The position numbers and the translations under genes were made by a program. A stretch of DNA of 64,000 nt, from IMG/VR virus record IMGVR_UViG_3300021256_000085, positions 21,736-85,735 of that record; one strand, written 5' to 3'. This DNA comes from a virus. Lineage: Duplodnaviria; Caudoviricetes. This document shows positions 16,352-48,794 of the stretch, piece by piece (position 1 is the stretch's first letter; each line of letters starts with the position of its first letter). Under the pieces are notes generated by a model. It saw only the letters and a program-made list of their open reading frames with translations, was not told the origin of the DNA and did no database searches.

Positions 16352-16633
16352 ATGAAAGAACTTAATAATTTTATAAATGAAAAATTGATAGTTGGTAAAA
16401 ATATCATTCATACAGTAAAATCTAAATACACTCTTAAAGATCTTCAAGAAGCATTAAATTATTATGAAGAATATTATGATGAATTTCCTGAAGAAAAAGG
16501 TGAATATCCTAATTGGGGAGAACTTGATAATTTTTTCAGTAATGAAAAATGGTGTGAAGCTTTGATGAATGGAGAAGATGATTCCCTTGTAAAAATTGTG
16601 GATGCAATATTTGATATATTATATAAAAAATAA
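16352..16633 (+). CDS. small acidic protein with extended leader MKELNNFINE-KLIVGKNIIH
   Basis: Shared leader; TATTTTTATATA at 16318. Confidence 0.7.
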   Translation: MKELNNFINEKLIVGKNIIHTVKSKYTLKDLQEALNYYEEYYDEFPEEKGEYPNWGELDNFFSNEKWCEALMNGEDDSLVKIVDAIFDILYKK

Positions 16634-16653
16634 TATTCAAATAAATAATTTTT

Positions 16654-16983
16654 ATGAAACAATTACAAGAATATATTATGAATGAAAAATTAATAATTGG
16701 TAAAAATATCATTCATAAAAAAGATAAACGATTTCAGAATGATGATCCTTGGACTGAAGATTGTTTATCAAAACTTCAAAATAAATATGATTCTAAATAT
16801 GTAGTTGTATTATCAAGATTAGGTGCTATTGCATTTTATAAAGGTCGTACTCAATCTTTAAAAAATTGTATTTGTATTCTTTGGGGAATTGATAAAAATG
16901 GAGAATTAATAGGAGATTGGGGACCTAATGAAAATTTAAAATCAACATTAGGAAAAGAAATACTTGAGACATTATTAAATTAA
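16654..16983 (+). CDS. hypothetical protein with extended leader MKQLQEYIMNE-KLIIGKNIIHK
   Basis: Shared leader. Confidence 0.7.
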   Translation: MKQLQEYIMNEKLIIGKNIIHKKDKRFQNDDPWTEDCLSKLQNKYDSKYVVVLSRLGAIAFYKGRTQSLKNCICILWGIDKNGELIGDWGPNENLKSTLGKEILETLLN

Positions 16984-17016
16984 ACTTCTAAAATTTGATT
17001 TTAGAAGTTTTTTTTT
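16982..17016 (+). terminator. intrinsic terminator
   Basis: AAACTTCTAAAA / TTTTAGAAGTTT stem plus T-run. Confidence 0.75.
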
Positions 17017-17053
17017 ATTTTTATATATATAATATTATTTATTAAACATATAT

Positions 17054-20000
17054 ATGAAATCATTATCTAATTATTCAAAAACACAATTAAACTATTTTAA
17101 TTCATTTAATAGTACTAATATATATAACCAACAAATTGCTTTAAATGAATCTCAATTAATATTATCACATGGATCTAATATTGATTCAGTTTTGTATAAG
17201 TTGAATAAATGTACTTCAAGATATAATGAGAATTTATTTTTTGAAAATCAAGATGACGTATTATTTACTATAGATGAGCAATATGCAGCTCGTGATATAT
17301 TATTGTTGACTTGTAAATTATATGTTGAATCATTATGTGAAGAATATAATATTGAAGTTCCAATTTTAGAGTCTACTGAAGATACAGTTAAAAATCTTAA
17401 AGGATTTATCAATAAAGTTGGTCAATATGCAAAAGAAAAGGGTGAAGAATTTAAGGATGAGGTAAATAAAATTGGTGATAGAATTAAAGCTGTTAAAGAA
17501 TTCATTCAACAAATTACTTCTAAAGCAATTAAGAGTGCTAAAGAATTAGCTGAGAAATTCTTAGATTTAATGATTTCATTAAAGAGTCGTTTATCAGATA
17601 TATTATCTAAATTAGGTGCTAAGATTGATGAAATCCAAGAAGAATTTAAAGAAAGTATTCTTAATGTTATCAATAATAAAGCTGATAGACCTAAAGAAAA
17701 TATTTATGAGAATTTACAAAATGCTTTGAAATCCGGTCGTCAATTAGATGAAGATTTAATTTTAGAGTTTTCATTGTTTGGTAAAAAGAAATCTAAGGAG
17801 GATGGTGATAATAAAGATGAAAAGTCTAAAGGTAGAAATGAATATGAAAAATCACTTGATCCAGATAAGAAAAAAGGAATTAAATCTAAAGGCAAGACAA
17901 TCATTGTTGGTATATTGAAGCAAATTGCTATATCAACAACTATATTAGTTTTATTACCTTCATTAATAGGATGTGTTTGGGGTCCAGCTGCCGCTATGAT
18001 TGCCGCAACCATTGCAAAAGCAGCTATGACTGGATATGGTTTCTATAGACTTTGTAAAAACATTTATTTGACTATTAAATCTTCAGAGTGGAAAGAAAAA
18101 TCCAAGTGGGCTAAATTAGGTCATGTGATTATTTGGATGTTGTCATTTGCTTTATTAGCATGGGGAGCATCAAAAATGAAAAATGATTTTGTGAAGATTT
18201 GGGATGCATTCTCTAAAGGAAACTTAAAAACTTTGGTACCAGATGAAATGGTCCAAGGTGGTATGAAAATCATCAATAATATTTATAAAGCTTTGACTGG
18301 TAAAGATACTCCTGGATTTGAAGAATTACAAAAAATAACTACTGAAGGTATCACTACATGGGAAAGCAAAGAAGAAGTCAAAGGAAAAACTAATGATAAT
18401 TTCACTTCTAAAGAACTTAAAAACTTAGGTGATACAAATGATTTCAAGAATATTGAAAACAACTTAGGTAAAGAAGTTACTGATGAATTGAAGAAAGCAA
18501 CTGAAGCTACTTTAAAATCTTCAAAGAGTGTACAAGATGCTTTCACCAATGCGGTTGATCCTTCTAAACTTCCATCAGATACACATATTGTATTTGTAGA
18601 TGGTAATACCGCAGCTAAAATGGTCAGAACTGGGTTGATTGGTAATACTAATGGTGCTGAGGTTGCTGTTAACCAAATTACAAATACTTCATTACAAGCA
18701 GCTACAAATGGCCAAGCTGGTACAATGTTCATGGTTGCTATAAAAGGTTCTAAAGATGCCGCTACAGATATTCTTTCACAAGCTTCATCAGCTGCTGGTA
18801 AGCATGGTGTTGATTTCTTAGGTAAAATGATTAGCGGTACGGCTACAGAAACAGTTGTAACACAAGTTCCACATACAGTTGCCGCTACTGCCGGTGGTTT
18901 TGCTCCTATTGTTGGGTTACCTATTATTACAAAGAAAAAAGTCGATAAAGGATTTTTACTTAGATTAGGTTCTTCTCGTTCTAAAAATAAAGTTTATATT
19001 ATTAGAGAAAATGATATCAAAGGTATGGCTTTTAAAGATATTGAATCTAAATATGGATCTAATAATACATCTGTATTTGAAGAGATGAAGAAGATTATCA
19101 ATAAAAATTACAAGACTTTAGAAAAGGCTAAAGAAAATTTAGAGAAAAAATCTAATCCAAGTAAATCTGAGAAAAAATTAATTGAAGGTATTACTAAGCA
19201 ATTAGAGAAAATGAAAGATGGAATATCTGAATATGAATGTTTAGTATTTTTTTCAAAAAAAGATGTTGAAAGTCAAAATACAGAGAATCAAACAAATGAA
19301 GGATTATTAAATAAACTATTTGGTAAAAAAGATAAACCAGAAGTTAAAGAAATTGAATATCAACCTGTAATGTTTATAAATCCTATTTGTATGGCTTGTG
19401 GTGATTTAGCTAATATTACTGAGAAAAAAGGTCCTCGTAAAAATCCAATCTATTTGAAAGGACTTTTTGCAAGTTATGAATTCTTGCCAGGTGAAGAAGG
19501 AATGACTGAGAAAGATATTAATGAAATGCTTCAATCCATTGCATTGGAATCTCTTAAGACAGCTTGGAATATGAGTGCAGATGCCCCATGTACTAAGAAA
19601 GCATTCAAGAAATATGTTGAGAATGAAGAATCTATATTCAAAGATCAACCTCGTGATGATTTTGGTAAACTGACAAATAGTGAAATTACCGAAATATTCA
19701 ATAATCCATCTTCAATCACTAAATATATGGGTGGTAAATATTCTACTAAGAGTACTGTTGAGAAAGAAAACACAGAAAATCAAAAGAAACGTAAAGAGAA
19801 TGCTAAGAAGGAATGGAAAGACAATATTGAGAATAATGATGAAATAAAGAAAATTATTGATGATTCACCTTCATTGAAGAAAAACTTGGTTGATAATGAT
19901 GGTAAAGTAAAAGATGGTGCATTAGATGATTTAAGCGATGCTTTCTTGAGAATGGAGACATCTTATAATAAAGGTAAATCTAAAAAATCTCTTTGGAAAC

Positions 20001-20320
20001 GTATTAAAGATTTCTTTACAGGTGGTGATGATGAAGATAAAGAAAAAAGTAAATATGATCCAGATGAAGTTCAAAAATTAGCATATAAGTTAGCTTCATT
20101 ACATTCTAAAAATTTAAAATCTAAACGTTCATCTGAAGAAGTTAAAGAATCATTGAATATAGAATTAATTGAAGAATTGGATGAGTCAATCAAATACTTT
20201 GATATGAATTTAGAAGATTTGTTATCAGAAGAATTCTATGATTTCTTGAATAATAAAGATATGGTTATTGAATCCTTAGATGATGAAGATGATGAAATAA
20301 TTTTATATGATGAAATTTAA
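17054..20320 (+). CDS. large (1088 aa) probable virion/ejected protein with membrane helices
   Basis: Late-type motif at 17016; hydrophobic helices (ISTTILVLLPSLIGCVWGPAAAMIAA; VIIWMLSFALLAWGA); Ala/Thr/Gly-rich middle; acidic C-terminus. Confidence 0.5.
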   Translation: MKSLSNYSKTQLNYFNSFNSTNIYNQQIALNESQLILSHGSNIDSVLYKLNKCTSRYNENLFFENQDDVLFTIDEQYAARDILLLTCKLYVESLCEEYNIEVPILESTEDTVKNLKGFINKVGQYAKEKGEEFKDEVNKIGDRIKAVKEFIQQITSKAIKSAKELAEKFLDLMISLKSRLSDILSKLGAKIDEIQEEFKESILNVINNKADRPKENIYENLQNALKSGRQLDEDLILEFSLFGKKKSKEDGDNKDEKSKGRNEYEKSLDPDKKKGIKSKGKTIIVGILKQIAISTTILVLLPSLIGCVWGPAAAMIAATIAKAAMTGYGFYRLCKNIYLTIKSSEWKEKSKWAKLGHVIIWMLSFALLAWGASKMKNDFVKIWDAFSKGNLKTLVPDEMVQGGMKIINNIYKALTGKDTPGFEELQKITTEGITTWESKEEVKGKTNDNFTSKELKNLGDTNDFKNIENNLGKEVTDELKKATEATLKSSKSVQDAFTNAVDPSKLPSDTHIVFVDGNTAAKMVRTGLIGNTNGAEVAVNQITNTSLQAATNGQAGTMFMVAIKGSKDAATDILSQASSAAGKHGVDFLGKMISGTATETVVTQVPHTVAATAGGFAPIVGLPIITKKKVDKGFLLRLGSSRSKNKVYIIRENDIKGMAFKDIESKYGSNNTSVFEEMKKIINKNYKTLEKAKENLEKKSNPSKSEKKLIEGITKQLEKMKDGISEYECLVFFSKKDVESQNTENQTNEGLLNKLFGKKDKPEVKEIEYQPVMFINPICMACGDLANITEKKGPRKNPIYLKGLFASYEFLPGEEGMTEKDINEMLQSIALESLKTAWNMSADAPCTKKAFKKYVENEESIFKDQPRDDFGKLTNSEITEIFNNPSSITKYMGGKYSTKSTVEKENTENQKKRKENAKKEWKDNIENNDEIKKIIDDSPSLKKNLVDNDGKVKDGALDDLSDAFLRMETSYNKGKSKKSLWKRIKDFFTGGDDEDKEKSKYDPDEVQKLAYKLASLHSKNLKSKRSSEEVKESLNIELIEELDESIKYFDMNLEDLLSEEFYDFLNNKDMVIESLDDEDDEIILYDEI

Positions 20321-20376
20321 ATTTTTAAAGTTTATTGACTATATTATATTGTAATTAATTTAAAAACTTTAAAATT

Positions 20377-20463
20377 ATGACTTGTTTAGAAACTATTATT
20401 TACATCGTTGGTTTTAGTGTTATGATTGCTTGGTTTAACTATACTGAAAGCAAAATGAAATAA
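20377..20463 (+). CDS. 28-aa membrane peptide (MTCLETIIYIVGFSVMIAWFNYTESKMK)
   Basis: Own CTATATT motif (20339) and own terminator. Confidence 0.55.
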   Translation: MTCLETIIYIVGFSVMIAWFNYTESKMK

Positions 20464-20485
20464 ACCTAAAAATTAAAAAAAATAT

Positions 20486-20526
20486 AAGAAGTATGTATAT
20501 TCAAAATATATATACTTCTTTTTTTT
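20486..20526 (+). terminator. intrinsic terminator
   Basis: AAGAAGTATGTATATT / AATATATATACTTCTT stem plus T-run. Confidence 0.75.
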
Positions 20527-20590
20527 ATGATTTATTAGAAATTTTGACTATATTAATAATTATCATTAAACAATTAAAATTTGAAATATT

Positions 20591-21532
20591 ATGGTAGAGA
20601 ATTTTATTAAGCAAACATTGAAGAAGGAATTTGACCAAGTGAATTTAGGAGATATTAATGCTATTCATGGTAATACTATTTCGGTAAAAATAGTAATGCC
20701 TTGCTATTGTCAAGCAAATTGTCCATTTTGTTTTAACAACCAAACTATCTCGACTCAAATGCATGATTGGGATGAATTTGAGAAAAATCTTATCAAATCA
20801 TTAACATTTATTGTTAAGAATCTTGATAATCGGAAGATTACATTGGATATTACTGGTAATGAACCAACATTCAATATCAACCATTTTAAGAAATTTATGA
20901 ATTTAATTTATAATTTCAGAAGACAATATTCTGATAAGATTGATAAAGTAGTATTGACAACTAATGGATTTCATTTGTATGAATGTATACCTTATCTATA
21001 TCCAACAATTGATATAGTGAATATTTCATTACATCATTATAATTATTCGGAACGTCGTAATATTTTTAAGACTAAATATATTCCATCTAATGAAGATTTG
21101 AAATTGATGATTCAAAAGATGAATTCATTACAAATGACGGTAACATCCGTAGCTGTAATATATAATAATGTTTATATTAAAAAATTTGTTGAGGATTTTG
21201 CTAATTTCTCAAAAGAATTGGGTTTTAAGGATTCAAGAATTAGATTCAATTTCACTTCTAATAATATAATAGTGCGAAATCAATTCTATCATGAATTTAC
21301 TAATAATGATCAAATAGTTGAAAATGCCGGGTTGTCAACCAAATACTTGGATTATGATGGATATAAAGTCAATCTTTATTTGGGTGTACCTGATTTGATT
21401 GATTATGTGATTGGTGTAGAGTTTGTAATAGATGACAATGGAAAACTATATTTAGATTATAATAAGAGATTTGAAATTACTGATCCTCAAATGATCAATG
21501 ATTTCGATAAAAATATATATTTGATTAAATAA
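20591..21532 (+). CDS. radical SAM protein
   Basis: CQANCPFC (CxxxCxxC); ITGNEPT; LTTNG; VNISLH. Confidence 0.85.
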   Translation: MVENFIKQTLKKEFDQVNLGDINAIHGNTISVKIVMPCYCQANCPFCFNNQTISTQMHDWDEFEKNLIKSLTFIVKNLDNRKITLDITGNEPTFNINHFKKFMNLIYNFRRQYSDKIDKVVLTTNGFHLYECIPYLYPTIDIVNISLHHYNYSERRNIFKTKYIPSNEDLKLMIQKMNSLQMTVTSVAVIYNNVYIKKFVEDFANFSKELGFKDSRIRFNFTSNNIIVRNQFYHEFTNNDQIVENAGLSTKYLDYDGYKVNLYLGVPDLIDYVIGVEFVIDDNGKLYLDYNKRFEITDPQMINDFDKNIYLIK

Positions 21533-21534
21533 AT

Positions 21535-21987
21535 ATGAATATCAAAAAGTATTTTTCAAATTTATTTTGTTTACATGAAAAATTAGAATTTGTTGCAAAT
21601 ATATATGGGGACCAAATAAATATCCATCATGGGAAACGTTCTGTTTGGAAATGTAAATCTTGTGGTAAATTGATTTATAAAGATAAGTTATATTATAGAG
21701 ATAGTTTATCTGAATTCTTAAATAAATTATCAGAACAATATTATACTAATTTACAAAATAAATGGGAACAGGAACATAAGCAAACGTTTGACAAAATAAC
21801 CAATCAAATGTGTGAAGCCGCAAGTAATGGTAAATGGTCAATAGATTATGTTATATCATTTAATGAGAATGATTGGTATAAATTTAAAAAATATTGGGAC
21901 AAGCAAAAAATTCGTATAGTTGATGTTGAAGTATCAAATCCGGATGTTGAAATTAAATTATATAAATTTAAATTTGTATGGACGTAA
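21535..21987 (+). CDS. hypothetical protein with Cys/His zinc-binding N-terminus
   Basis: FCLHE...WKCKSCGK. Confidence 0.6.
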   Translation: MNIKKYFSNLFCLHEKLEFVANIYGDQINIHHGKRSVWKCKSCGKLIYKDKLYYRDSLSEFLNKLSEQYYTNLQNKWEQEHKQTFDKITNQMCEAASNGKWSIDYVISFNENDWYKFKKYWDKQKIRIVDVEVSNPDVEIKLYKFKFVWT

Positions 21988-22208
21988 ATAAAGTTTATAT
22001 ATTAAAATGTATTGGAGATGAAAAATTTTTTAATGGCCATTTTAATGTAATATGTAAAATGGCATTTAAAGAAGATCCATTAAAAACAGATAAATACAAT
22101 AAAGAAGTAGAAGCATTCTTGAAGGAATGTAAAAATGACAAAAAATATTTATCTTGTGTAGAAGAAGGGACTGAACAATTAATTTCATTTGAATTACAAA
22201 TAATATGA
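21978..22208 (+). CDS. hypothetical protein
   Basis: ORF track, coupled to neighbours. Confidence 0.55.
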   Translation: MDVNKVYILKCIGDEKFFNGHFNVICKMAFKEDPLKTDKYNKEVEAFLKECKNDKKYLSCVEEGTEQLISFELQII

Positions 22209-25646: not shown

Positions 25647-27089
25647 ATGAGTAAAATTAATTCCACATCTATGACAAAGAAGTTGTCAACAGTTCAAACA
25701 AGTGTTGGTGAAATTGCAGGACAGGTTACAAATACCGCTGCAGCTCAATCAAATATTGCTCTTCTTCGTAGAGCAGTTCTTGCAAATCTTCTATGGGAGA
25801 ATATTGCATACATGGATGGTCAACGAGTGGCTGATGAGATTAAGCGACTTATTCCATTGTGTGATCCGGCTTTTGTAGCTCAACTTGTCGTTGAAGCTCG
25901 TACTATGCAAAAGCTCCGTCATACACCTCTATTTATTGCGGTAGAGATGTGTAAGTATGACACAACTCGTCCTTATGTAAAGGATATTCTTCCGAAGATT
26001 ATTACCCGTGCAGATATGCTTACCGACTTCTTGGCTCTTTACTGGGCCGATGGAAAGTGCCCTATTTGTAACTCGGCTAAGAAGGGTCTTGCACAAGCAT
26101 TCCATAACTTCAATGAGTACAAGTTTGCCAAGTATGATAGAAATACTCCTATCAAGTTGCGTGATGTAATGTTTATGGTTCGTCCAAAGCCTGAAACCCC
26201 ACTTGAAGCTGAACTTTACAAGAAGATTGCTGACCGTACTCTTGAAACTCCTGAGACATGGGAGGTACTTCTTTCACTTGCACATACAAATAAGGAAAAG
26301 GTAGCAGTTTGGACCAAGCTTATTAATGAAGGTAAGATTGGTGGTAAGGCTATGCTTATGAACCTTCGTAACATGCAGAATGTAGGAGTTCCTCGTCCTG
26401 TTATTACAAAGGGACTTAAGGAGCTTAAGGGAGCTATGCTTCTTCCTCTTGACTTCTTGAAGGCTATGCGTGAGAGCAATGGTCTTGACAGGGAAATTGA
26501 GGATGCTATGCTCAATACATACAAGGATATGCCAAAGCTTCCTGGAAAGACTTTGTTCATTGTAGACGTATCTGGTTCTATGGGATCACTTACATCTGGT
26601 GGATCAGTATTCTCTCGTTTGGATCAAGCTTGTTCAATGGCAATGCTCGCAGCCAATCAATGTACTGACTTTGAACTTGTATGTACAGCAGGTTCAGATG
26701 GTGATCGTAGTGAGGAGCAAATCCGTATTGAATATCCTTCAAAGGGATTCCAGCTTTTCCAAGAGATTCAAGATTCACGTCGTACTGTAGGAGGTGGTGG
26801 TATCTTCACATACCAATGTCTTGAAAAGCTTCGTAAGAAGCTTGGTAACAAGATATATGATTATACACGAATCATTGTATTCTCTGACTCTCAGGATATT
26901 GATGTAAGTTGTGGATCCAATAAGAAGCCTCGTCCATTTGGTAAGTACAATTACATCTGTGATGTATCTTGCCATACTCGAGGTATCAATTACAATGGTG
27001 TATGGACCGCAGAAATTTCTGGATGGTCAGAACACTTCCTCACATACATTGCTGCCTTTGAAGGTATTGAGAATACCTTTGATGAATAA
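25647..27089 (+). CDS. TROVE/Ro60 RNA-binding protein with C-terminal vWA (MIDAS) domain
   Basis: LRRAVLANLLWE...ARTMQKLRHTP...TPETWEV...MLMNLRNM; MIDAS DVSGSM; IVFSDSQ. Confidence 0.88.
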   Translation: MSKINSTSMTKKLSTVQTSVGEIAGQVTNTAAAQSNIALLRRAVLANLLWENIAYMDGQRVADEIKRLIPLCDPAFVAQLVVEARTMQKLRHTPLFIAVEMCKYDTTRPYVKDILPKIITRADMLTDFLALYWADGKCPICNSAKKGLAQAFHNFNEYKFAKYDRNTPIKLRDVMFMVRPKPETPLEAELYKKIADRTLETPETWEVLLSLAHTNKEKVAVWTKLINEGKIGGKAMLMNLRNMQNVGVPRPVITKGLKELKGAMLLPLDFLKAMRESNGLDREIEDAMLNTYKDMPKLPGKTLFIVDVSGSMGSLTSGGSVFSRLDQACSMAMLAANQCTDFELVCTAGSDGDRSEEQIRIEYPSKGFQLFQEIQDSRRTVGGGGIFTYQCLEKLRKKLGNKIYDYTRIIVFSDSQDIDVSCGSNKKPRPFGKYNYICDVSCHTRGINYNGVWTAEISGWSEHFLTYIAAFEGIENTFDE

Positions 27090-27122
27090 AAAATGGAAGG
27101 TTTCAAAACCTTCCATTTTTTA
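27089..27122. terminator. bidirectional terminator between convergent genes
   Basis: AAAAATGGAAGGTT / AACCTTCCATTTTT. Confidence 0.8.
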
Positions 27123-27599
27123 TTTTTTAAGTTCTTTTATATATTTCTTAAGGCATTTTAATTCATCATCATGAAATCTTCCATCCAATATTTTAAATCC
27201 CCAAGAACATGCTTTGTCTGATGATAGTTCTTGAAGGTCTTTATCATCTACAAGTTCTTTATTATATAAAACCCAATATAATGTTGATTTTCCAATATAT
27301 TTGTTTTTGTTTTTCTGAACATATATACCCCTTTTGTCAAATTTTAATGTTTTAAGAAAATCATTCCTATCTGCATATTTTTCATCAAGATATTCAACAA
27401 CTATATTATTTTTAAGGACTTTTACAATTTTGACCATTTCTCTAATCTGAGCGGCATAATGATGTGTGTCATATTTAATTAAAATACATTCATCACCAAC
27501 ATTAAAAGTAAAATCATCATCCGTACGACGAGAAGTTAATCCTAAAAACATATGTTCGGTATTTTTAGATTCATAAATAAAATCTTTAATATCTTTCAT
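27120..27599 (-). CDS. hypothetical protein with leader MKDIKDFIYE
   Basis: ORF track; shared leader. Confidence 0.65.
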   Translation of the reverse strand: MKDIKDFIYESKNTEHMFLGLTSRRTDDDFTFNVGDECILIKYDTHHYAAQIREMVKIVKVLKNNIVVEYLDEKYADRNDFLKTLKFDKRGIYVQKNKNKYIGKSTLYWVLYNKELVDDKDLQELSSDKACSWGFKILDGRFHDDELKCLKKYIKELKK

Positions 27600-27901: not shown

Positions 27902-28603
27902 TTACCATCTTTTAAATTCATGGCTTTCATATTTTTTAGTTGGCATTTCATTATTAATAAATTTGGCAATAATATCTCCTTTAGTAAATGGGCAATCTAA
28001 TCCCCATAAATCATCCCACCAAGAAGGAACTTCACGATATTCTACCATTTCCCAGTGTGGACAATTTTTACATCTCTTATAATGGAATTGATATTCTTTA
28101 TGTCCAGTTCCAGATACGTGAATTCCTGCACCAACAGGGCCACCTGAAAAATATTGATATACAATATCTACTAAACCAGTTTCTTTATATTCCATTTCTT
28201 TAGCACATGAAGGACAAATTAATCCTTGTTTTCTTAATTCTTCATATTTGTCTTCTTCAACATTATCTAACCAAGCCTTGAATTCTTTGATTCTTTTATT
28301 GATAACTTTAATAACAGCTTCCATTCCATAGTTTTCATATTGGAAAACTAATTTCCAAAGTTGTTCTTTAATAGCTTGAGTAGTCTTATTATTGTCAAAT
28401 GTATTTTGCTCTTTACCTAAAACAATATCATATTTTTTGAAAGCATCTTTTAATGTTTGCTCATCTTTATATGATTCAAGAGTTTCAATAAGTTTAGCAA
28501 TATCAAATTGTGGTTGAATAGTTCCTAAACAAAGCATTTCTTCTTTAGGTTCAAAAAACAATTTATAAATAAAAAATTTAATCTTATTCCAAATCTTTTT
28601 CAT
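27902..28603 (-). CDS. hypothetical protein with zinc-ribbon CxxC pairs
   Basis: ICPSC...RCKNC. Confidence 0.6.
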   Translation of the reverse strand: MKKIWNKIKFFIYKLFFEPKEEMLCLGTIQPQFDIAKLIETLESYKDEQTLKDAFKKYDIVLGKEQNTFDNNKTTQAIKEQLWKLVFQYENYGMEAVIKVINKRIKEFKAWLDNVEEDKYEELRKQGLICPSCAKEMEYKETGLVDIVYQYFSGGPVGAGIHVSGTGHKEYQFHYKRCKNCPHWEMVEYREVPSWWDDLWGLDCPFTKGDIIAKFINNEMPTKKYESHEFKRW

Positions 28604-29484
28604 TTTATAACTGATTTTATAAATTTATCATCTTTAAGTTTATTCAATGCAGAGCCACGTTGATTTGGTAATGCCGATTGTTCATCATTTTTCTTAGTTC
28701 CACCCTTAAATGTTTGTGGCATATTTTCTCTAGATGGAGAATTCTCAGCTGGATAATTATTTGATTTAATATCCATCAATCTCTCACATAACCAATCAAC
28801 AATACTTTTAAAATCTTTGCATTCATCTATATAATTAATATAATCATCAATAAGATCTTTATTAAAAATATCTTCTATATATTTTTGAAGTTTTGCCTTC
28901 GTCATTTCATCATCATATAAGTTTGGTCCAGAAACACTATTATATGGTAATTGATGCACATCTTGTTTAGCTTTTACGGCGGCAATTGTTCCTTGTACGG
29001 CTTTTAACATTTGAATAGGTGAAATATCTCCATCATAATTAAAAGATAATATTTTACCATTTGGATTTAATATAATAGATTGAGCCCATGAATGATGTCC
29101 ATCTATAATATAGTTTTCTCTAAAAGTCACAATTGGTTTATGATTAATAACTATTGGTTTATCAAATGTTTGTTTAAAAGCTTTTTTCTGTGTCAATATA
29201 TATTTTAAAGACTTATTTAAATCAATGTCTGATTGAGTTGGGATTAATTGAGAAACAGGAATTTCTTTGACAGAAAAAACTAATTTTGTATCACCTAATT
29301 CACCACCAAATCCATCTTCTAATAATGCTTTAGCCTTTGGGTCATCCAACATTTTATTTAAAGCATCTACATAATCAATATATTTCTTATGTTTCAACCA
29401 AGATTCTAATTCTTTCTTACGTTGCTTGTTTGAATTAGTTGATATACCAGAAGACTCAAATATATATTGAGAGAATATTTTCAT
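28600..29484 (-). CDS. ParB/Srx-like nuclease-fold protein with leader MKIFSQYIFE
   Basis: IPVSQLIPTQ...PIVTFRENYIIDGHHSWA. Confidence 0.7.
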   Translation of the reverse strand: MKIFSQYIFESSGISTNSNKQRKKELESWLKHKKYIDYVDALNKMLDDPKAKALLEDGFGGELGDTKLVFSVKEIPVSQLIPTQSDIDLNKSLKYILTQKKAFKQTFDKPIVINHKPIVTFRENYIIDGHHSWAQSIILNPNGKILSFNYDGDISPIQMLKAVQGTIAAVKAKQDVHQLPYNSVSGPNLYDDEMTKAKLQKYIEDIFNKDLIDDYINYIDECKDFKSIVDWLCERLMDIKSNNYPAENSPSRENMPQTFKGGTKKNDEQSALPNQRGSALNKLKDDKFIKSVIK

Positions 29485-37869: not shown

Positions 37870-38014
37870 TAATAAAATCTAATATATTTTTTGTTAATAT
37901 ATATTTGTAATGAGTCAATTTTCAATCATTCAAAAAATAATTTTTTTAATAATCTTTAATTCAATAATATACCATAAATTAAATTTATTATTAAATAAAT
38001 ATAGTATATTTTAC

Positions 38015-38854
38015 ATGAGTTGTACTACAAATAATATCCCTAAAACATCAGAAGATATTGTAAAATTAAATGCTCAAATTGAAGATCAAACTGACTATCA
38101 ATTTATACAACGAATTATACAAGATTTAACCCAATCTTGTGCATTACCTTTACCAATACCGGCAGCTGCTATTCCTCCATTAATCTTACAAGCGGCTCAA
38201 TTTTTCTGGGAAAACTATGATTTTGCAGTTGAAGAAAGATATTATTGTGTAAAAAATGCAGATTTTTGTAAATGTGGTCCAAATAGAACTATTACCCTTC
38301 CACAAAGAATAATATCAGTATTTGGTGTATATAAGACAACTAACACTTTTGCTTATGGAGCATTAGGTGATTTCTCATTAGAGAGAATGTTGATTAATAA
38401 CACTACTATGGCTGGTGGTATGGGTAATATTGGAGGGTTTAGTGATTTTTTTGGTGGTTCTGGATATAATTTGACTGATGTTATGGGTGCTATATATGAA
38501 GTTCAAACTTTTAAAAATATGTTTGAAGCTCCATTGACATATAACTTTAATCCATATTCTCATAAATTAGTTATATTAGGAGATCTTGGATATTCAGATT
38601 TAATTTTACAAACATACTTAAGATGTAAAATTCAAGATTTATACCAATTATATTATTTCTTCAGACTTTGTGTTTGTTTAGGTAAAAAATCCATGGCTAC
38701 TATTCTTGGAACATTTGAATATAAGTTACCAGGTGGAATTACTTTAAATTATGCACGATTTGAAGATAGTGCTGACCAAGAAATAGAAAAAATTGAAGAA
38801 TGGTGTAGAAGTCAACATTCAGCTGATTATTTCTTTAATACAATTACAGTTTAA
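38015..38854 (+). CDS. neck/head-completion protein, T4 gp13-like
   Basis: AAQFFWENYDFAVEERYY; C-terminal KLPGGITLNYARF...EIEKIEE resembles the gp13 LPGGVTIDG motif; ATG 38015 preferred over 37910. Confidence 0.7.
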   Translation: MSCTTNNIPKTSEDIVKLNAQIEDQTDYQFIQRIIQDLTQSCALPLPIPAAAIPPLILQAAQFFWENYDFAVEERYYCVKNADFCKCGPNRTITLPQRIISVFGVYKTTNTFAYGALGDFSLERMLINNTTMAGGMGNIGGFSDFFGGSGYNLTDVMGAIYEVQTFKNMFEAPLTYNFNPYSHKLVILGDLGYSDLILQTYLRCKIQDLYQLYYFFRLCVCLGKKSMATILGTFEYKLPGGITLNYARFEDSADQEIEKIEEWCRSQHSADYFFNTITV

Positions 38855-38857: not shown

Positions 38858-39538
38858 ATGAAAAATTTAGATAGTTATATAACTGAGAAACTTGTTATTG
38901 GTAAAAATATCATTCATAAGAAAATTACAGTTTCAACAAGGAATGAGCTTATAACAATATTAGAAGAGCGTTTAAATAAAGATAAAGATGCCAACTTAAA
39001 TGATTTAGATGTTAGCCAAATAACCGATATGTCAGAGTTATTTAATGGTTTAGATCCACATAATATTAAAATTGATCTATGGGATGTCTCAAATGTTAAA
39101 GATATGGATAGTATGTTTTACCGTTGTCTAAATTTTAATTTTGACTTAAGTAAATGGGATATCTCTAATGTTAAAAATATGCATGGTATGTTTTATCTAT
39201 GTAAAAAATTTAATTCTGATTTAAGTCATTGGGATGTATCTAATGTAGATGAAATGGGTAGGATGTTTGAAGGTTGTGAAAATTTCAATTCTGATTTAAG
39301 TAATTGGAATGTTTCAAATGTTGAAAATACATCTCGTATGTTTTATGGATGTAAAAACTTTAATTCAGATTTAAGTAAATGGGATGTGTCTAAAGTTAGA
39401 TATATGAGTAATATGTTTTATCATTGTGAAAAATTCAATTCAGATATAAATCAATGGGATGTATCTAAAGTTAAAATTATGGATAATATGTTTAATGGAT
39501 GTAAATCATTAAATGAACCAAATTGGTGGAGAGAATAA
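38858..39538 (+). CDS. DUF285/BspA-like LRR repeat protein with extended leader MKNLDSYITE-KLVIGKNIIHK
   Basis: About six tandem 25-aa repeats FNSDLSxWDVSNVxxMxxMF, also visible at DNA level (39060-39510). Confidence 0.85.
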   Translation: MKNLDSYITEKLVIGKNIIHKKITVSTRNELITILEERLNKDKDANLNDLDVSQITDMSELFNGLDPHNIKIDLWDVSNVKDMDSMFYRCLNFNFDLSKWDISNVKNMHGMFYLCKKFNSDLSHWDVSNVDEMGRMFEGCENFNSDLSNWNVSNVENTSRMFYGCKNFNSDLSKWDVSKVRYMSNMFYHCEKFNSDINQWDVSKVKIMDNMFNGCKSLNEPNWWRE

Positions 39539-39563: not shown

Positions 39564-39869
39564 ATGAAAACCTTAGATAGTTATATAACTGAGAAACTAG
39601 TTATTGGTAAAAATATTATACATAAAGAAAATAAATCTTGGGATAAACTTATTCAAGATTGGATAGATGAATGGGCAAAAGATGATTTTGAATATCTAAT
39701 GTTATTGATTGATAGATTTTTAGAAGATGATACTTTTGAAGGAGATACTCAAGATGAATATGAACCATTCTTACAATATGAGAAAAATAATAAATTTAAA
39801 GAATATTTCAAAGATAAAATTCTTAAATTTAAATTAGATGTGGAAAATCAAATAAAAAATATGAAATAA
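39564..39869 (+). CDS. acidic protein with extended leader MKTLDSYITE-KLVIGKNIIHK
   Basis: Leader nearly identical at DNA level to 38858. Confidence 0.7.
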   Translation: MKTLDSYITEKLVIGKNIIHKENKSWDKLIQDWIDEWAKDDFEYLMLLIDRFLEDDTFEGDTQDEYEPFLQYEKNNKFKEYFKDKILKFKLDVENQIKNMK

Positions 39870-39877: not shown

Positions 39878-40930
39878 ATGGATAACTTAATTAATTATAT
39901 TAAAGAAGGTTTTATTGATGAGATGCTTGATAAAATTAATAATGAGATAATTACTGAATCTTTAAATGCTAAAGTATTACAGGAATTAGCTAAACAATTA
40001 ATAGATCAAGTAAATCAAGAGAAAAAAGAAAAAGAAAAAGACTCTTATAAAAGTATTTATAATCATACATTCAAAAATGTTTTTGGTGAATCTCACATAG
40101 TTTGGGATAAGATTTCTGATAGTGATATTCAAGAAATTGAACCACAATCATGGGATGTGAAGAAAACTAAGATTGCTAATGAGAAACTTATTAGAAGTGT
40201 TATTAAAGGAGATAAAAATTCTATTATATTTAGTCGTGATCCGGAAACTAAACAATTTGAATATGTGATCTTGACTTGGGGTCAAGTATATACTTTAAAA
40301 CCATTATGGGGTCAAGCCGCTGGTAGAAGACTTGGAAGTGGATATGGAAGACATTTTAAAGATTTAACCCAACGAGAGAAAATTGATTTGTTCCAAAATA
40401 AAATTGTTTATGTTATTGATAAAGTTCAATTTGATTCAACAAAAATTAAAACAGATCGATACAATAATCGACAAGGAATGATTAATTTTGATAAATATTC
40501 ATTATCTAAAATTGCCCAAGACAATAAGGATAGATATAAAAAAATAATATCACAAAATAAAGCTAAAAATGCATCTAATGATCAATTATTAGAAGAAACT
40601 ACTGAAATAATTAATAAAATTACGGAAATTACTGTCAAAGTTGCTAAGAATCCAATTAAATATTTAGATATTTATTATGATGTTCAATCATTATCTAAGT
40701 TAGTTTATGATGAGAAAAAATATGTAGAACCAACTAGATATAATAAAAAAGGATATTATACTGGATTGAATGGATTACTTAGATTAGTTGCTAAATATAT
40801 TGAAGCAGTTAAAGATAGTAAAGCCGGATATTCTTGGGGTACACAACAAATGGATAATACAGTTAAAGAAATCAAAGAAAGAATTCAAAAAGCTAAAGAG
40901 TTAATTGATAAGATTGAAGAACTGATGTAA
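39878..40930 (+). CDS. hypothetical protein with leader-like MDNLINYIKE
   Basis: 350-aa ORF in the neck operon; early IITE/SLNA motif. Confidence 0.6.
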   Translation: MDNLINYIKEGFIDEMLDKINNEIITESLNAKVLQELAKQLIDQVNQEKKEKEKDSYKSIYNHTFKNVFGESHIVWDKISDSDIQEIEPQSWDVKKTKIANEKLIRSVIKGDKNSIIFSRDPETKQFEYVILTWGQVYTLKPLWGQAAGRRLGSGYGRHFKDLTQREKIDLFQNKIVYVIDKVQFDSTKIKTDRYNNRQGMINFDKYSLSKIAQDNKDRYKKIISQNKAKNASNDQLLEETTEIINKITEITVKVAKNPIKYLDIYYDVQSLSKLVYDEKKYVEPTRYNKKGYYTGLNGLLRLVAKYIEAVKDSKAGYSWGTQQMDNTVKEIKERIQKAKELIDKIEELM

Positions 40931-43138: not shown

Positions 43139-43161
43139 AAAGATTTTGTAAAAGATAATTT

Positions 43162-43332
43162 ATGCTAAGTAAATTTTTTAAGTATACACTAATTATTTTA
43201 ATGTTCATATTAAATTGCTATCTTTGGTATGCTGCAATTAATGTTATTGAAGGACATGAGGCCGCAGGTATGACTGGACTTTGGGCTGCAATAATGGATG
43301 TGTTTTTTATGTACATAATTTTAAAAAATTAA
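43162..43332 (+). CDS. small 2-TM membrane protein (56 aa)
   Basis: Translated by hand: MLSKFFKYTLIILMFILNCYLWYAA... Confidence 0.5.
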   Translation: MLSKFFKYTLIILMFILNCYLWYAAINVIEGHEAAGMTGLWAAIMDVFFMYIILKN

Positions 43333-43336
43333 TAAT

Positions 43337-43600
43337 ATGAAAAAGATTTTAGTTTTGATTATTTCGTTAGTTTGCTTGACAAGTTGTGAACAAATGATTA
43401 CTAAGGAATTGGGTGGAACCACTACTATTACTCTTGAGAAGGGTGAGAAACTTGTTGAAGCCACTTGGAAGAGTAATGGTAATCTTTGGTATTTAGTTGA
43501 ACCTATGGATTCTGACTATGTTCCAAAGACTAAAATATTCAAAGAAAGTTCACTTTATGGTGTTATGGAAGGTAAAGTAATTTTTGTAGAAAACAAATAA
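43337..43600 (+). CDS. lipoprotein
   Basis: Signal MKKILVLIISLVCLTSC with lipobox. Confidence 0.7.
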   Translation: MKKILVLIISLVCLTSCEQMITKELGGTTTITLEKGEKLVEATWKSNGNLWYLVEPMDSDYVPKTKIFKESSLYGVMEGKVIFVENK

Positions 43601-43604
43601 AATT

Positions 43605-44012
43605 ATGAATATCTGTAACTATTTTAATGAAGAGATTAAAAGAAATATTCTTAGTGAAAAAGAATATAATGGTGAACATTCAATTTTATCTCGAGTTGAT
43701 TGGAGAAATATAAAGGAAGCATATAAAGAGCATTATACCCCAGAGCAACTTCAATATCTTTTTGCCCATAATTTGCTTCGAGAATATGTAAAAACTGGTG
43801 CTGTTTGGGAACGCCCTTATTCAGAATATTGGGAATTCACAGATAAAGGAAAATCTTTACGCAAATGGTATAATCGTGAATCTCTTTGGAAATATTTCTA
43901 TTATAAATCTCAAATTTATATGCTAAAGTATTATTGGCAAAAATTTAGGATTAAATGTGGACATCGATATCCTTGGCAGGAATATGAAGGTGTAGATATT
44001 AGTGAAATTTAA
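43605..44012 (+). CDS. hypothetical protein
   Basis: ORF track. Confidence 0.6.
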   Translation: MNICNYFNEEIKRNILSEKEYNGEHSILSRVDWRNIKEAYKEHYTPEQLQYLFAHNLLREYVKTGAVWERPYSEYWEFTDKGKSLRKWYNRESLWKYFYYKSQIYMLKYYWQKFRIKCGHRYPWQEYEGVDISEI

Positions 44013-44025
44013 AAAATAAAAAAGT

Positions 44026-44205
44026 ATGAAAACATTTTCCGATATGATTTTTGGTGCATGTGTAATGTGTCTTATATATAATATTATATTTATTTTTCAA
44101 GATAAAGCAAATTCAATAACTTATGTTGCATTGCTTTTTCTTGTGATATATTTTATACTTGAAATTTCACGTAGGGTATTTGATAAAGAAAATGAGGATT
44201 ATTAA
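44026..44205 (+). CDS. small 2-TM membrane protein (59 aa)
   Basis: Translated by hand: MKTFSDMIFGACVMCLIYNII... Confidence 0.5.
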   Translation: MKTFSDMIFGACVMCLIYNIIFIFQDKANSITYVALLFLVIYFILEISRRVFDKENEDY

Positions 44206-44219
44206 TTAATCCTCATTTT
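44189..44219. terminator. bidirectional hairpin over convergent stop codons
   Basis: AAAATGAGGATTA / TAATCCTCATTTT. Confidence 0.65.
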
Positions 44220-44390
44220 CTTTTTTAGTTTTTTATATTTTTTGATTTTTTTATCAACAATATCTAATGGTTGTAGAATATCACCAGATCCAACTTCTCC
44301 ATTTATCCCTGGAGGACTTACATTTCCCATTCCGGTAGTATTCATTGGAGTTGCAAATAATTCTTCTAAATAAGTCTTAAGATTTTTCAT
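44202..44390 (-). CDS. small protein with leader MKNLKTYLEE
   Basis: ORF track; shared leader. Confidence 0.6.
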   Translation of the reverse strand: MKNLKTYLEELFATPMNTTGMGNVSPPGINGEVGSGDILQPLDIVDKKIKKYKKLKKKMRIN

Positions 44391-46059
44391 TTGATTTGTT
44401 TTCTTTATGATTTCTTTCTTCAGCAGCTTTTTTAGATTTTTCTATTGCTAATTGGTTGAATTCATATAGAAGACTATCATCTAATATATGTTTTTGTCCT
44501 GGATTAATCAAATATCCCATCTTACTCATTACATCTCGATTAATAAGTACTTTTTGTTTTTTATTACGATTATCTACTAAAGCAAATTCCGCATTTAATA
44601 ATTTACGTGAACCAATTCTTATACATGGAATTTCCACAGTTACTCTTTCTTCAACATTTTGACCAACTATAGCATTTGATTGTCCAACCAATTTAAAAGT
44701 ATATTCTTTTCCTTCTATTGTTGCAAAAACTTTATGACCTTTTTGCTCAACTTTCTCACAACCAATAGTAGATGCTTTAGCACCATTACCGGTATCAAAC
44801 TTAGCTTCAAACTCAACTTCTGATTCATCGGTATCTGATAAAGTAAAATACACATTTTCTAGATATCCAATAGCTTTTGGCTCTAATACTAATTGATTAA
44901 TATCATTAATCTCATTTAATAGTATTTCCATAAAATTATCACCAATCACTTCTGAAATACCATCAGTACCAGGTGAAGCATTATATTCAAGAACTACATT
45001 ATCACCTATCTCTGGATTACTATCATGTACTAAAGGCATAATATCTACAGCACACCATGGCATACGAGATATCTTAGCTACTTTCAAAGCAATCTCTTCT
45101 TGTTCTGGAGTTAATTTAACTGATTCAGCGGTTGCACCTAAAGAAACATTAGAACGGAAATCTCCACTAATCTTCACACGTTTCATAGCAGCTAATATTT
45201 TTTGTTCTGTACGCATAGTCAATACATGCACACGAATATCACCACCATCAGCTTCTTCTTTCTTTTGTAACAATAATTCACGTTCAGGATCTATTGCAAA
45301 TATAGCTTGAAGAATAGAAAGAATAGTTTTTCCGTTCACCATAAATACACCAGTTCCACCATGGCCATCAAGAATTTTAATGACATATTCTTTTTTCTTG
45401 TCAGCATTCTCATCTTCACCTACATCTTTATAAATCAATTTAAGTTTCTTTTGTAATGACTCTTCTCCTTTAGCGATATCATTAGCTGAAAGTAATGTGA
45501 ATTTAGGTTGTGGAATATTATATCTTTCCATCAATACCGCTGAAGTGTATTTATTAGATGCACGTTGAGCAGCTTGTATAGGATTAAGAACAAAAAATCC
45601 CCAATCTTGAAGTTCTTTAATAAGTTCAATACACTCTTCAGAATCTTGGGCACCTAAACGAGTGATTACAATAGTATCAACATTTGATTGAACATCAATA
45701 GTATATTTATTGACATTATCATGAAACTTGATTTTTTTATCTGTAGCTTTGTAATCTATTTCTTCAGCAATAAAAGGATATAGTTTTACTCCTTTACCTT
45801 TAATAGCTTCTTCTAAATTCTTCAATGTTTTGTTAGATTTAGAATCTCTATCATTTGTAAAGAAAATAATATTCTTGAAGAAAAAATCCTTCTCATCATT
45901 TTCATCATTCTCTTCAACAATCAAATTATCTGAATTTTGATTTTCCTTTTCTAGAAGTAACTTATTTTCTTCTTTAAGTTTCTTATTAACTACTTTAAAT
46001 ACTTCAGAAATCACCTTTGGATCTCTATAATCAATATATTCATTTGAAAATTTCTTCAT
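44377..46059 (-). CDS. RimK-family ATP-grasp ligase fused to C-terminal retropepsin-like protease domain
   Basis: ASNKY...IPQPKF; VIKILDGHGGTGV; DIRVHV; GDFRSNVSLGA; AVDI; LEYNASPG; C-terminal AKFDTGNG...VLINRD. Confidence 0.85.
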   Translation of the reverse strand: MKKFSNEYIDYRDPKVISEVFKVVNKKLKEENKLLLEKENQNSDNLIVEENDENDEKDFFFKNIIFFTNDRDSKSNKTLKNLEEAIKGKGVKLYPFIAEEIDYKATDKKIKFHDNVNKYTIDVQSNVDTIVITRLGAQDSEECIELIKELQDWGFFVLNPIQAAQRASNKYTSAVLMERYNIPQPKFTLLSANDIAKGEESLQKKLKLIYKDVGEDENADKKKEYVIKILDGHGGTGVFMVNGKTILSILQAIFAIDPERELLLQKKEEADGGDIRVHVLTMRTEQKILAAMKRVKISGDFRSNVSLGATAESVKLTPEQEEIALKVAKISRMPWCAVDIMPLVHDSNPEIGDNVVLEYNASPGTDGISEVIGDNFMEILLNEINDINQLVLEPKAIGYLENVYFTLSDTDESEVEFEAKFDTGNGAKASTIGCEKVEQKGHKVFATIEGKEYTFKLVGQSNAIVGQNVEERVTVEIPCIRIGSRKLLNAEFALVDNRNKKQKVLINRDVMSKMGYLINPGQKHILDDSLLYEFNQLAIEKSKKAAEERNHKENKSNEKS

Positions 46060-46120
46060 ACTATTATATAAGATTTTGTTTAATTATTTATATATAAAAA
46101 TAATTTTTTAAGATACAAAA

Positions 46121-46157
46121 AATAAAAGGTACCTATTTAAATAGATACCTTTTTATT
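46121..46157 (-). terminator. terminator hairpin downstream of 46177..47463
   Basis: AATAAAAGGTA..CTATTT / AATAG..TACCTTTT imperfect stem. Confidence 0.55.
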
Positions 46158-46176
46158 TATAAAATATTTTAATTGA

Positions 46177-47463
46177 TTATTTACTTTCAAGTATTGCTAA
46201 ATCTTTGGCTACTTTATTTAAAAGAGCAATCTTAATAGGGTCATTCTTATATTGTTCAGCAAGCATTGCAATCTTTTTCTTACGAATTGTATATTGTGCT
46301 TCTTTGTTAGCTTCTAATTGTTCTTTGATTTCTTGTGCTTGTGGATCTAATTTCTTCATGTCTTCATTGATACGATCTTCAAACATAGGTTTCAAATCAA
46401 TTCCTGTCAACTTGATAACTTCATTCAAAGCTTCAACCATATAATCATAAGTATAACTACCACTTCCTTGTTTAATATTACGATAAACTGTTAAATTAAC
46501 ATTATCTTTAGCTTCAATGATTGCACAAATAGTGTTGTTGTTAGTTGTCAATACTTTTACATTATCTAATGAAACAATATTGTCAAATGCTTCAAATACT
46601 TCACTAATTGAGCTGGTTAAATTCATGAATGATAATTTCTCATTCATATTCATTATCTTAGAGATTGTATTACAATATTCTTGGAACTTAATATGATTTT
46701 CAAATGTTTCATTAATATCTTTACCTAAACCCTTTCTTGTAAATGTCAAACCGTTTTCATTAATTTCAAAGCGTAATTTGTCACCATGGGCACCTTGTGA
46801 TTCAATAAAGATACCACCATTTTCACTTAATTGATATCCATTACTTAATAATGAATTTATTCTTGCAAATTTCTTATCATCACAATTACTTTCAACAATT
46901 TTATTATCTTCAATCTTAAATGTCTTTCCAAGAACATTGAAATACTGTGATTTGTCCTCATTTACATATACATAACTAATTGGATTCATTACTGTATAGT
47001 TAGGAGCTTGCATCTCTGTGATTTGTGTCTTGTAAACTTCTTTGCAAACTGATCTAAACTCAGGAATATATTGAATGTTCTTCAAAACACCAGCTTTAAT
47101 ATAAGATACAACATCTGATTCATTCATTTCAAGTAATTTCTTTACTTGTTCAACACCAATCTTGTTAATATAGTTATATTTACTATTATTAGCTTCAATT
47201 GATTCACATGCAGATGCTAATTTCCAACTAATGTTATTCTCATTAATATATTCTTTTACAGATTCCAATATATTGTTCAAACCTGTGTCAAAACTACATT
47301 TAGAAGCTTCAAGTACAAAGCCATTTACAATTCCACATGTAGGAGCATTAGTATACATGTATGCTCTATAAGTTTTTAGTATTTCCTTACCTGCTTCAGT
47401 AATAGCTTCAGTACTATTTAATTTTGTAGCAAAGTCAAGGTCTTTCAATAAATTTACACTCAT
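46177..47463 (-). CDS. hypothetical head protein, candidate prohead core/scaffold
   Basis: Unusually many [ILVMF]-x-E sites (ITE, VLE, ILE, INE x4, MNE x2, IVE, FIE, IIE, LNE). Confidence 0.35.
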   Translation of the reverse strand: MSVNLLKDLDFATKLNSTEAITEAGKEILKTYRAYMYTNAPTCGIVNGFVLEASKCSFDTGLNNILESVKEYINENNISWKLASACESIEANNSKYNYINKIGVEQVKKLLEMNESDVVSYIKAGVLKNIQYIPEFRSVCKEVYKTQITEMQAPNYTVMNPISYVYVNEDKSQYFNVLGKTFKIEDNKIVESNCDDKKFARINSLLSNGYQLSENGGIFIESQGAHGDKLRFEINENGLTFTRKGLGKDINETFENHIKFQEYCNTISKIMNMNEKLSFMNLTSSISEVFEAFDNIVSLDNVKVLTTNNNTICAIIEAKDNVNLTVYRNIKQGSGSYTYDYMVEALNEVIKLTGIDLKPMFEDRINEDMKKLDPQAQEIKEQLEANKEAQYTIRKKKIAMLAEQYKNDPIKIALLNKVAKDLAILESK

Positions 47464-47547
47464 ATGTATATATTTGGTATATTTATATTTATATTATTTT
47501 AAAATTATCTATATATAATAATAAATATTTTTTAAGTTTATATTTTA

Positions 47548-47832
47548 TTATAATCGATATCCAAGTTTTGTTGCAGCGGCAGTTACAATTAATCTTGAAG
47601 TCATTAGACTTCCTAATGCACCTTTAGGATCAATTCCCAAAACATTGCATATTGTTGTCATGACTTTAGGACCAAAAACTAAACCACCAGCAGCACCGGC
47701 AATAGCACCAACAATTCCTTCATCAATAGGTAAATTGTTTTCTTTAGCTTCATTTAATTTTTGGATAATTTCATCATAAACTAAAGATTCATTAATTTGA
47801 CAATCTTTATTTATTTCAGACATTGTTTTCAT
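47548..47832 (-). CDS. small protein with leader ending QINE and a Gly-zipper hydrophobic segment
   Basis: MKTMSEINKDCQINE...GIVGAIAGAAGGLVFG. Confidence 0.6.
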   Translation of the reverse strand: MKTMSEINKDCQINESLVYDEIIQKLNEAKENNLPIDEGIVGAIAGAAGGLVFGPKVMTTICNVLGIDPKGALGSLMTSRLIVTAAATKLGYRL

Positions 47833-48035
47833 ATTTCAATTTTATTTTCTTTCTTATTATAAATGATTTGGTCTTTAAATATGGTTGATAGATATCCATT
47901 TCTATTTACTTTTGCAACATGGATATTTGATCCATATTTTTTCTCTAACTCTTGTAAAATTAAAATTAAATTACATATTTCCATTCATTTAATAATAATT
48001 TAATATGTATTTATATATAAAAATAAAAAATATTA

Positions 48036-48794
48036 TTAGTTATCTTCCCATGTTTCGGACATATGTTTTTCACATTCTTTTTCTCTTTCTTTGTCTATTT
48101 CTAATGCCCCATATTTATTTTTTCGAACATCTGTATAAAAATCCTTTTCTAAATCTGATAGATAATCTTTTTGTTTAACAGGACCTAATTTATAGAATTT
48201 TTTCAAATTATTTTTAAATTCTTCAACTGGTAATAATTTTTTAGTAGCATTTGGTTTGACGACATAAACCATAGCCATTTTATATATTATTAATTTAGAT
48301 TTTCTTTCAACAGGAACCCGATTGATATATGCATTTTCAACATCATGTGTACCAGTTACATTCCAAGAATTATATTTTGTGAATAATCCTTTATCATCAG
48401 AAAGAATTAATGGCATATATATAGAGGGCATTCTTTTCATCAAAGTATCATATTTTGGTATTTTAGAACTCTGAAATGTTAATACAATTGCTGGATAATT
48501 TGAATTATATAGATATTTTTTATTAGTATAATTACCCTTATATTCACTTGATCCAATTTCATTTTCTGTGAAAAATGTTTTTGCATCCATCACTTCAATT
48601 TTAACTACATCCTTTTTAAGTGGACTTGATAAAAATGCTTCAATAATTGCATTCATATATATTTTAGATAATGCTTTGCAATTAGTGTGATTAATTATTT
48701 CAATACCTTCTTGATAAATTGGATTTTGTGATTTATGAATAATATTCTTACCTAAAACAAGTTTTTCATAAATATATGTATCTAATTTTTTCAT
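48036..48794 (-). CDS. hypothetical protein with extended leader MKKLDTYIYE-KLVLGKNIIHK
   Basis: Shared leader. Confidence 0.7.
   Translation of the reverse strand: MKKLDTYIYEKLVLGKNIIHKSQNPIYQEGIEIINHTNCKALSKIYMNAIIEAFLSSPLKKDVVKIEVMDAKTFFTENEIGSSEYKGNYTNKKYLYNSNYPAIVLTFQSSKIPKYDTLMKRMPSIYMPLILSDDKGLFTKYNSWNVTGTHDVENAYINRVPVERKSKLIIYKMAMVYVVKPNATKKLLPVEEFKNNLKKFYKLGPVKQKDYLSDLEKDFYTDVRKNKYGALEIDKEREKECEKHMSETWEDN

Follow-up and report, generated by a model that had tools for sequence, protein, structure and literature searches.

A T4-like N-terminal leader with a second conserved block precedes unrelated proteins of an uncultured AT-rich jumbo phage

Why do five phage genes with otherwise unrelated products begin by encoding the same short peptide? 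The question is raised by a 64,000-nucleotide stretch of viral DNA (Duplodnaviria; Caudoviricetes; positions 21,736 to 85,735 of IMG/VR record IMGVR_UViG_3300021256_000085), hereafter the window, in which one N-terminal module of 21-22 residues opens the open reading frames (ORFs) 16352+, 16654+, 38858+, 39564+ and 48794-. The window is the right-hand 64 kb of one 85.7-kb virus contig with 26% GC and a CheckV completeness of 30%, and the source of the contig is an uncultured AT-rich jumbo tailed phage. A preliminary description of this DNA took the module for a swappable leader like that of the T-even internal proteins, whose DNA acts as a recombination handle and whose distal half may be a second signal. 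In T4, the capsid-targeting sequence (CTS) is 10 residues long (PMC8442874). For the T4 protein IPIII, targeting depends on residues 4 and 7 and processing on residues 8 and 10, with gp21 cutting after L/I-x-E (PMC9026906). The T-even internal proteins are diverse and common only in their targeting sequence (Rao and Black 2010, PMC3012670), while the giant phages phiKZ, 201phi2-1 and SPN3US process many head proteins after Glu with a diverged gp21-type protease and package large sets of proteins (PMC9026906). A full-text search of the literature with motif strings of the tag returned no paper, and the extension after Glu10 appears to be undescribed in the literature searched.

Results

One module opens five unrelated genes

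To count copies of the module, we used a degenerate DNA pattern for the 11 residues E-K-L-x-x-G-K-N-I-I-H. Exactly five matches were obtained in the six frames of the window and none in 100 dinucleotide-preserving shuffles, and no sixth copy of the module was found across the whole 85.7-kb contig. Leader gene 1 (16352..16633, +) encodes 93 amino acids, with the leader in codons 1-22 (16352-16417) ahead of an acidic body, and its orthologue in the relative L011 is 92% identical. Leader gene 2 (16654..16983, +) encodes 109 amino acids, and an extra Met9 moves its Glu to residue 11. The extra residue stems from a strain-specific in-frame ATG (3 nt) inserted at 16678-16680; the L011 orthologue is without the insertion and has the normal spacing. 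Leader gene 3 (38858..39538, +; 226 amino acids; leader at 38858-38923) immediately follows a head-tail adaptor-like gene (37910-38854), and its body is a DUF285 repeat domain (PF03382, E 7.9e-66, 219.7 bits with a gathering cut-off of 25). Leader gene 4 (39564..39869, +; 101 amino acids; leader at 39564-39629) has an acidic body. Lastly, leader gene 5 (48036..48794, -; 252 amino acids; leader at 48729-48794) has a basic body and lies between an AAA ATPase/baseplate-wedge block and a group of small genes on the same strand.

When the five bodies were compared by BLASTP, none matched another. Pfam and PHROGs gave a known family for the DUF285 body and none for the other four. In the case of leader gene 5, tblastn with its 252-residue product and with a neighbouring protein of 428 amino acids found no match in 50,697 phage records, and the ESM Atlas held no usable match for its body. 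The preliminary description had thus placed the five genes correctly and was right that they share about 21 residues and then diverge, whereas two of its details hold in part. Its "acidic mini-proteins" include two small bodies that are indeed acidic (cargo pI 4.2 and 4.45), but the body at 16654 is near neutral. Likewise, the first 60 or so nucleotides of 38858 and 39564 are alike but not "nearly identical", since 59 of the 66 nt of leader DNA agree (89%). Across all five genes, likeness at the DNA level runs from the ATG through codon 21 only, and the regions upstream are dissimilar.

The leader has two conserved parts and is selected as a peptide

Of 110 distinct leaders, 107 have the canonical spacing, with Glu at residue 10, and these were used for column statistics. 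The strongest columns are M1, K2, [LI]4, [YF]7, I8, E10, K11, L12, [VI]13, I14, [GN]15, K16 and [ND]17, with decay from residue 18. For instance, residue 4 is Leu, Ile or Phe in 106/107 leaders, residue 7 is Tyr or Phe in 94/107, residue 8 is Ile in 105/107 and residue 10 is Glu in all 107. Part 1 (residues 1-10) therefore has the consensus M-K-x-[LI]-x-x-[YF]-I-x-E. Part 2 (residues 11-17) reads K-L-[VI]-I-[GN]-K-[ND] and fades by residue 21, with I-I-H-K coming next in the clade of the window. The module is a T4-like leader followed by a second conserved block and is thus not a plain CTS, because the second block departs from T4. The preliminary description had raised the idea of a second signal after the cleavage site, and the conservation that this calls for is there: the segment after Glu10 is as conserved as the one before it. 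Because of this equal conservation, the segment would have a function of its own.

The extended motif is N-terminal in 94 cases and internal in 7. The seven internal copies of part 2 fall in three multi-module protein families; they have lost the first half of the leader, yet a hydrophobic-x-Glu precedes K-L in 7/7. Moreover, several leaders of the relative L067 contain the h-x-E-K-L unit (h, hydrophobic) twice in a row. Judged from sequence, the internal copies and the doubled units fit a processing site.

Codon usage was compared among 32 distinct leaders of the exact GKNIIH form. Synonymous codons divide 14/18 at Glu10 and 10/22 at Lys16, Leu12 is encoded by four codons, Val13 by three, and Ile18 and Ile19 by three each, while the residues themselves are constant. 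Since synonymous sites are free to vary and the residues are kept, selection acts on the peptide; a DNA-level role as the cause of the conservation is ruled out by the same variation.

Relatives carry the leader on many different bodies

A scan with a degenerate pattern located about 20 metagenome contigs and one IMG/VR contig with the tag, and the GC content of all of them is 23-28%. True matches have a Met exactly six residues ahead of the aromatic residue in every case. The scan also returned 17 matches in bacterial and archaeal genome contigs (25-66% GC), none of which stands at the start of an ORF, and these were discarded as chance, as were about half of its 43 metagenome loci. The exact GKNIIH form was found on 46 proteins, which fall into 16 BLAST clusters with DUF285 the largest (22/46). 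We then compared a profile of 26 leaders with 1.84 billion representative proteins and obtained 53 matches (E up to 0.001), 50 of which start at residue 1. These matches reveal a broader family in which Gly at position 15 is often replaced by Asn, Ser or Asp. When pooled, the broad EKL form precedes at least 117 distinct bodies that form 54 BLAST clusters, with DUF285 accounting for 36/117. The leader is independent of the fold of its cargo, and the cargo is diverse. The proposal of a swappable leader on different cargo is borne out in relatives, and the alternative outcome named with it, that the cargo regions would prove homologous beyond the leader, did not emerge among the five bodies or the 54 unrelated clusters.

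Some relatives carry the leader in far greater number than the window. In L067 (24% GC), more than 20 consecutive tagged genes for proteins of about 150-200 amino acids occupy 1568-18662; their leaders have the EKL-IINK form, some of the bodies are DUF285, and the array encloses an untagged gene for a T4 gp2-like head protein. A NUDIX-DUF285 fusion inside this array has the short, 10-residue leader only. L069 (29% GC) has an array of 11 genes with the tag. It also has six neighbouring genes at 13752-17083 with a different N-terminal motif (…F-E-T-N-S-S-S-x-H…), which are probably a paralogous enzyme family unrelated to the leader. The metagenome contig ODAI010954724.1 (L007) reaches past the right end of the window; where the two overlap, their proteins are 98-99% identical, and the extension (L007 4248-7077) holds three further EKL-leader genes, two with DUF285 and one of 135 amino acids with a divergent tail.

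Among named phages, we checked Lak-C1, chosen through DNA similarity in DUF285, and PAU, pT24, PTm1 and LR756500, four of the nearest by similarity of the baseplate wedge protein. The EKL-type leader is absent from all five (0/5) and short leaders number at most a few, so the tag is not general among these relatives. An S77 protease scores above the Pfam cut-off in 5/5 of the same phages.

A crossover lies inside the leader

Between the relatives L028 and L035, 534 nt are 99% identical, a stretch that starts within a DUF285 gene and takes in the first 60 nt of the following one. Past these 60 nt, L028 tracks a different L035 gene, and a leader block of 44 nt is identical in all three. Because L028 switches to another L035 gene at this point, L035 has one more DUF285 cassette than L028, with the junction inside the leader. 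This is the sole clean crossover in our data, and it supports the proposed recombination handle and its likeness to the T-even phages, in that a crossover within the leader changes the cargo that follows. In L030, non-DUF285 cargo takes the place of the next DUF285 copy, with the same 3′ end and leader ahead of it, an arrangement that at the sequence level is consistent with cargo exchange. Leader-cargo pairings, which the preliminary description expected to vary across relatives, differ between L028 and L035 but are unchanged in the close relatives of the window (L011, L020 and L007).

The leader lies outside the modeled cargo domain

An AlphaFold2 (AF2) model of the DUF285 protein encoded at 38858, built on an alignment of 25 sequences, has a body with pLDDT (the confidence measure of AF2) >90 from about residue 21. 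The leader is a lone helix over residues 4-19, modeled with low confidence (pLDDT 73 and 58). In the model, the tag appears to lie outside the confidently folded cargo domain; the helix itself is a suggestion only. The model of leader gene 5 (252 amino acids; 3 sequences) was poor, with a mean pLDDT of 53.

Other genes carry part 1 alone

The same contig has further genes with part 1 only, whose likeness to the leader genes ends at Glu10. Counting both kinds of leader, the motif occupies residues 4-10 in 11 of 142 ORFs, against 0.10 expected from its internal frequency. The short-leader genes are found at 1496..5605 (+; 1369 amino acids with a ResIII helicase domain, the leader ending in Glu10), 14029..14502 (-; 157 amino acids), 27120..27599 (-; 159), 28600..29484 (-; 294), 39878..40930 (+; 350, directly following leader gene 4) and 44202..44390 (-; 62, overlapping the end of an ATP-grasp gene). 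In L021, a tandem run of about nine genes with only the short leader, on differing bodies, was observed at 4305-8340 and 12525-13235, an internal-protein-like locus adjoining extended-leader genes.

Genomic setting

The baseplate wedge protein of the window (phrog_219, 50328-52004) has its closest matches in Sphingomonas phage PAU, uncultured huge phages, Tenacibaculum jumbo phages, Lak megaphages and T4-like cyanophages. A 94-residue protein (47548-47832, -) with a Gly/Ala-rich hydrophobic stretch resembles, in an unscored comparison by eye, an ORF of Lak-C1 (L063 2274-2600) that adjoins a DUF285 gene and lies about 4.5 kb from the S77 prohead protease of Lak-C1. Going by this resemblance, the two may be a small piece of synteny with the Lak megaphages.

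The ATP-grasp gene is RimK-like and encodes 560 amino acids (Pfam RimK, E 4.9e-22). Together with the 62-residue short-leader gene that overlaps its end, which has a Gly/Pro-rich body, it occupies 44202-46059 (-), and the two may form an enzyme-substrate pair. A gene with a TROVE (Ro60-like) domain is located at 25647-27089 (+); it has a weak, sub-threshold match to VWA_2 (von Willebrand A) and also matches phrog_850, "RNA-binding protein". Directly downstream of leader genes 1 and 2, a protein of 1088 amino acids (17054-20320, +) has stretches judged by eye to be hydrophobic and membrane-like, along with a weak, sub-threshold match to an Apolipoprotein-family Pfam entry. Its N-terminus is similar to residues 1-7 of the leader, an L-x-E site is present near residue 32, and we regard the protein as a candidate ejection or tape-measure-like protein.

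Discussion

What, then, does the module do? The likeness of part 1 to the T4 CTS offers a starting point. Both are N-terminal stretches of 10 residues ending in Glu10 with hydrophobic or aromatic residues at 4 and 7 and Ile at 8, both stand on otherwise unrelated bodies in several genes per genome, and the five named relatives checked carry the gp21-type S77 protease. Part 1 would accordingly be a T4-type capsid-targeting propeptide that docks the new protein onto the prohead's scaffolding core and is then cut off at I-x-E, after Glu10, by a prohead protease of the gp21 type (Peptidase S77). Part 2 would be a second element, confined to one clade of uncultured AT-rich jumbo phages. It could lengthen the docking helix by two turns, or, left at the start of every mature protein, it could govern something they have in common, for example retention, head position or ejection behaviour. 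A role in the head would suit the structural neighbourhoods in which leader genes lie, after the head-tail adaptor-like gene and beside the baseplate-wedge genes, and likewise the T4 gp2-like gene enclosed by the L067 array, as far as gene order can indicate. We infer head loading, cleavage after Glu10 and a role for part 2 from these comparisons, and on balance we consider the scheme as a whole, with part 1 as a prohead-loading signal that is trimmed off after Glu10 and part 2 as an extra element, to be probable.

Several observations weigh against this scheme. Residues 11-17 are conserved as strongly as residues 1-10, with no drop at Glu10. A plain propeptide would not be expected to keep K11-N17 so constant; the site could be left uncleaved, or the tag could have another reader. 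The Lys at P1′ is invariant in extended leaders, whereas short leaders have small or varied residues there, and shared sequence that ends at the cleavage site, as in T4, is true only of the short-leader genes on the contig and not of the extended leaders. The low confidence of the modeled leader helix is a further point on this side. Finally, neither the 85.7-kb contig, which is 30% complete, nor a 46-kb relative showed a recognisable gene for a protease, major capsid protein or scaffold.

The unbroken conservation suits an uncleaved docking tag, in which the whole of the roughly 20 residues, as a helix or as a helix and a short strand, would permanently anchor varied domains in one socket of a virion component, in the head interior or on the surface. 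Such a tag would be comparable to the N-terminal anchors that are conserved among exchangeable tail spikes and decoration proteins. It would also account for a modeled helix that is continuous over residues 4-19 and for DUF285, a repeat-type binding domain, being by far the commonest cargo. Yet Glu10 is fixed in position and, like residues 4, 7 and 8, obeys the T4 rules for targeting and processing, the 10-residue form occurs alone in the same genomes, hydrophobic-x-Glu is kept at the internal copies, and the cargos are mostly small without signs of adhesins. We think permanent anchoring unlikely.

The scheme with trimming could also be carried one step further, to an address of two signals. 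Residues 1-10 would load the protein and be trimmed, and the exposed K-L-[VI]-I-[GN]-K-[ND] would then mark a distinct class of packaged proteins. The second address would set, for example, the position in the head, the exit with the DNA or the handling by the host after injection, and in multi-module proteins the same unit would serve as a polyprotein processing site. With leader recombination added, a clade of gut or rumen-type jumbo phages would possess a plug-in system with dozens of delivered proteins. We regard this fuller version as doubtful.

That the tag is read not by the prohead but by another machine, a chaperone or enzyme from the same genome (ATP-grasp ligase, AAA ATPase or export/import system, for example), appears improbable. 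In the window, the ATP-grasp enzyme does adjoin a short-leader peptide and the AAA ATPase adjoins leader gene 5. However, distant leader loci showed no homologue of a window protein except DUF285, hence no ATP-grasp or AAA protein, these loci being short fragments in which linkage was not systematically tested; the called genes of L067 and L069 are without an ATP-grasp or AAA Pfam family, and the tag is without the hydrophobic core of a secretion signal. A shared start without function as a peptide, left by gene duplication (ordinary paralogy) or kept as a recombination or regulatory site in the DNA, is very improbable. In its favour, tandem arrays hold many of the tagged genes, the DUF285 members are genuine paralogues and recombination within the leader does happen. 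Against it, the bodies form 54 BLAST-unrelated clusters, synonymous sites are scrambled while residues are kept, DNA likeness begins exactly at the ATG, and 50/53 profile matches place the tag at residue 1.

Under the preferred reading of head loading and trimming after Glu10, the system departs from its known counterparts in several ways. Unlike in T4, the 7-11 residues past the presumed cut are conserved as strongly as the CTS itself, and the set of genes is far larger: the 85.7 kb hold at least 12 with a leader, and relatives have arrays of more than 20. As with the T-even internal-protein genes, a conserved leader precedes exchangeable cargo, and a natural variant differs by a whole cassette with its junction in the leader; here, though, the tagged genes are dispersed and also form long tandem arrays, instead of occupying one locus. 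The sites of phiKZ, 201phi2-1 and SPN3US differ in being S/A-x-E, without a shared N-terminal leader of fixed length and without a conserved segment after the cut. As for the DNA, a constant peptide would leave a patch of about 60 nt of near-identical sequence before many genes, at which homologous recombination would add, remove and exchange cassettes. Since synonymous sites vary freely, recombination is a consequence of the conserved peptide-coding patch and not the cause of its conservation.

What is particular to this system is a conserved block past the presumed cut, its presence on at least 54 groups of cargo within one uncultured, AT-rich clade and a documented crossover within the leader. 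That crossover is a concrete example of turnover in a set of cargos. If the preferred reading is true, the conserved segment after the cut would have no counterpart in the T4 model, and the packaged proteome of these phages would be predictable from sequence alone through a tag of 22 residues. An uncultured clade of jumbo phages would then label dozens of unrelated proteins for delivery with its genome.

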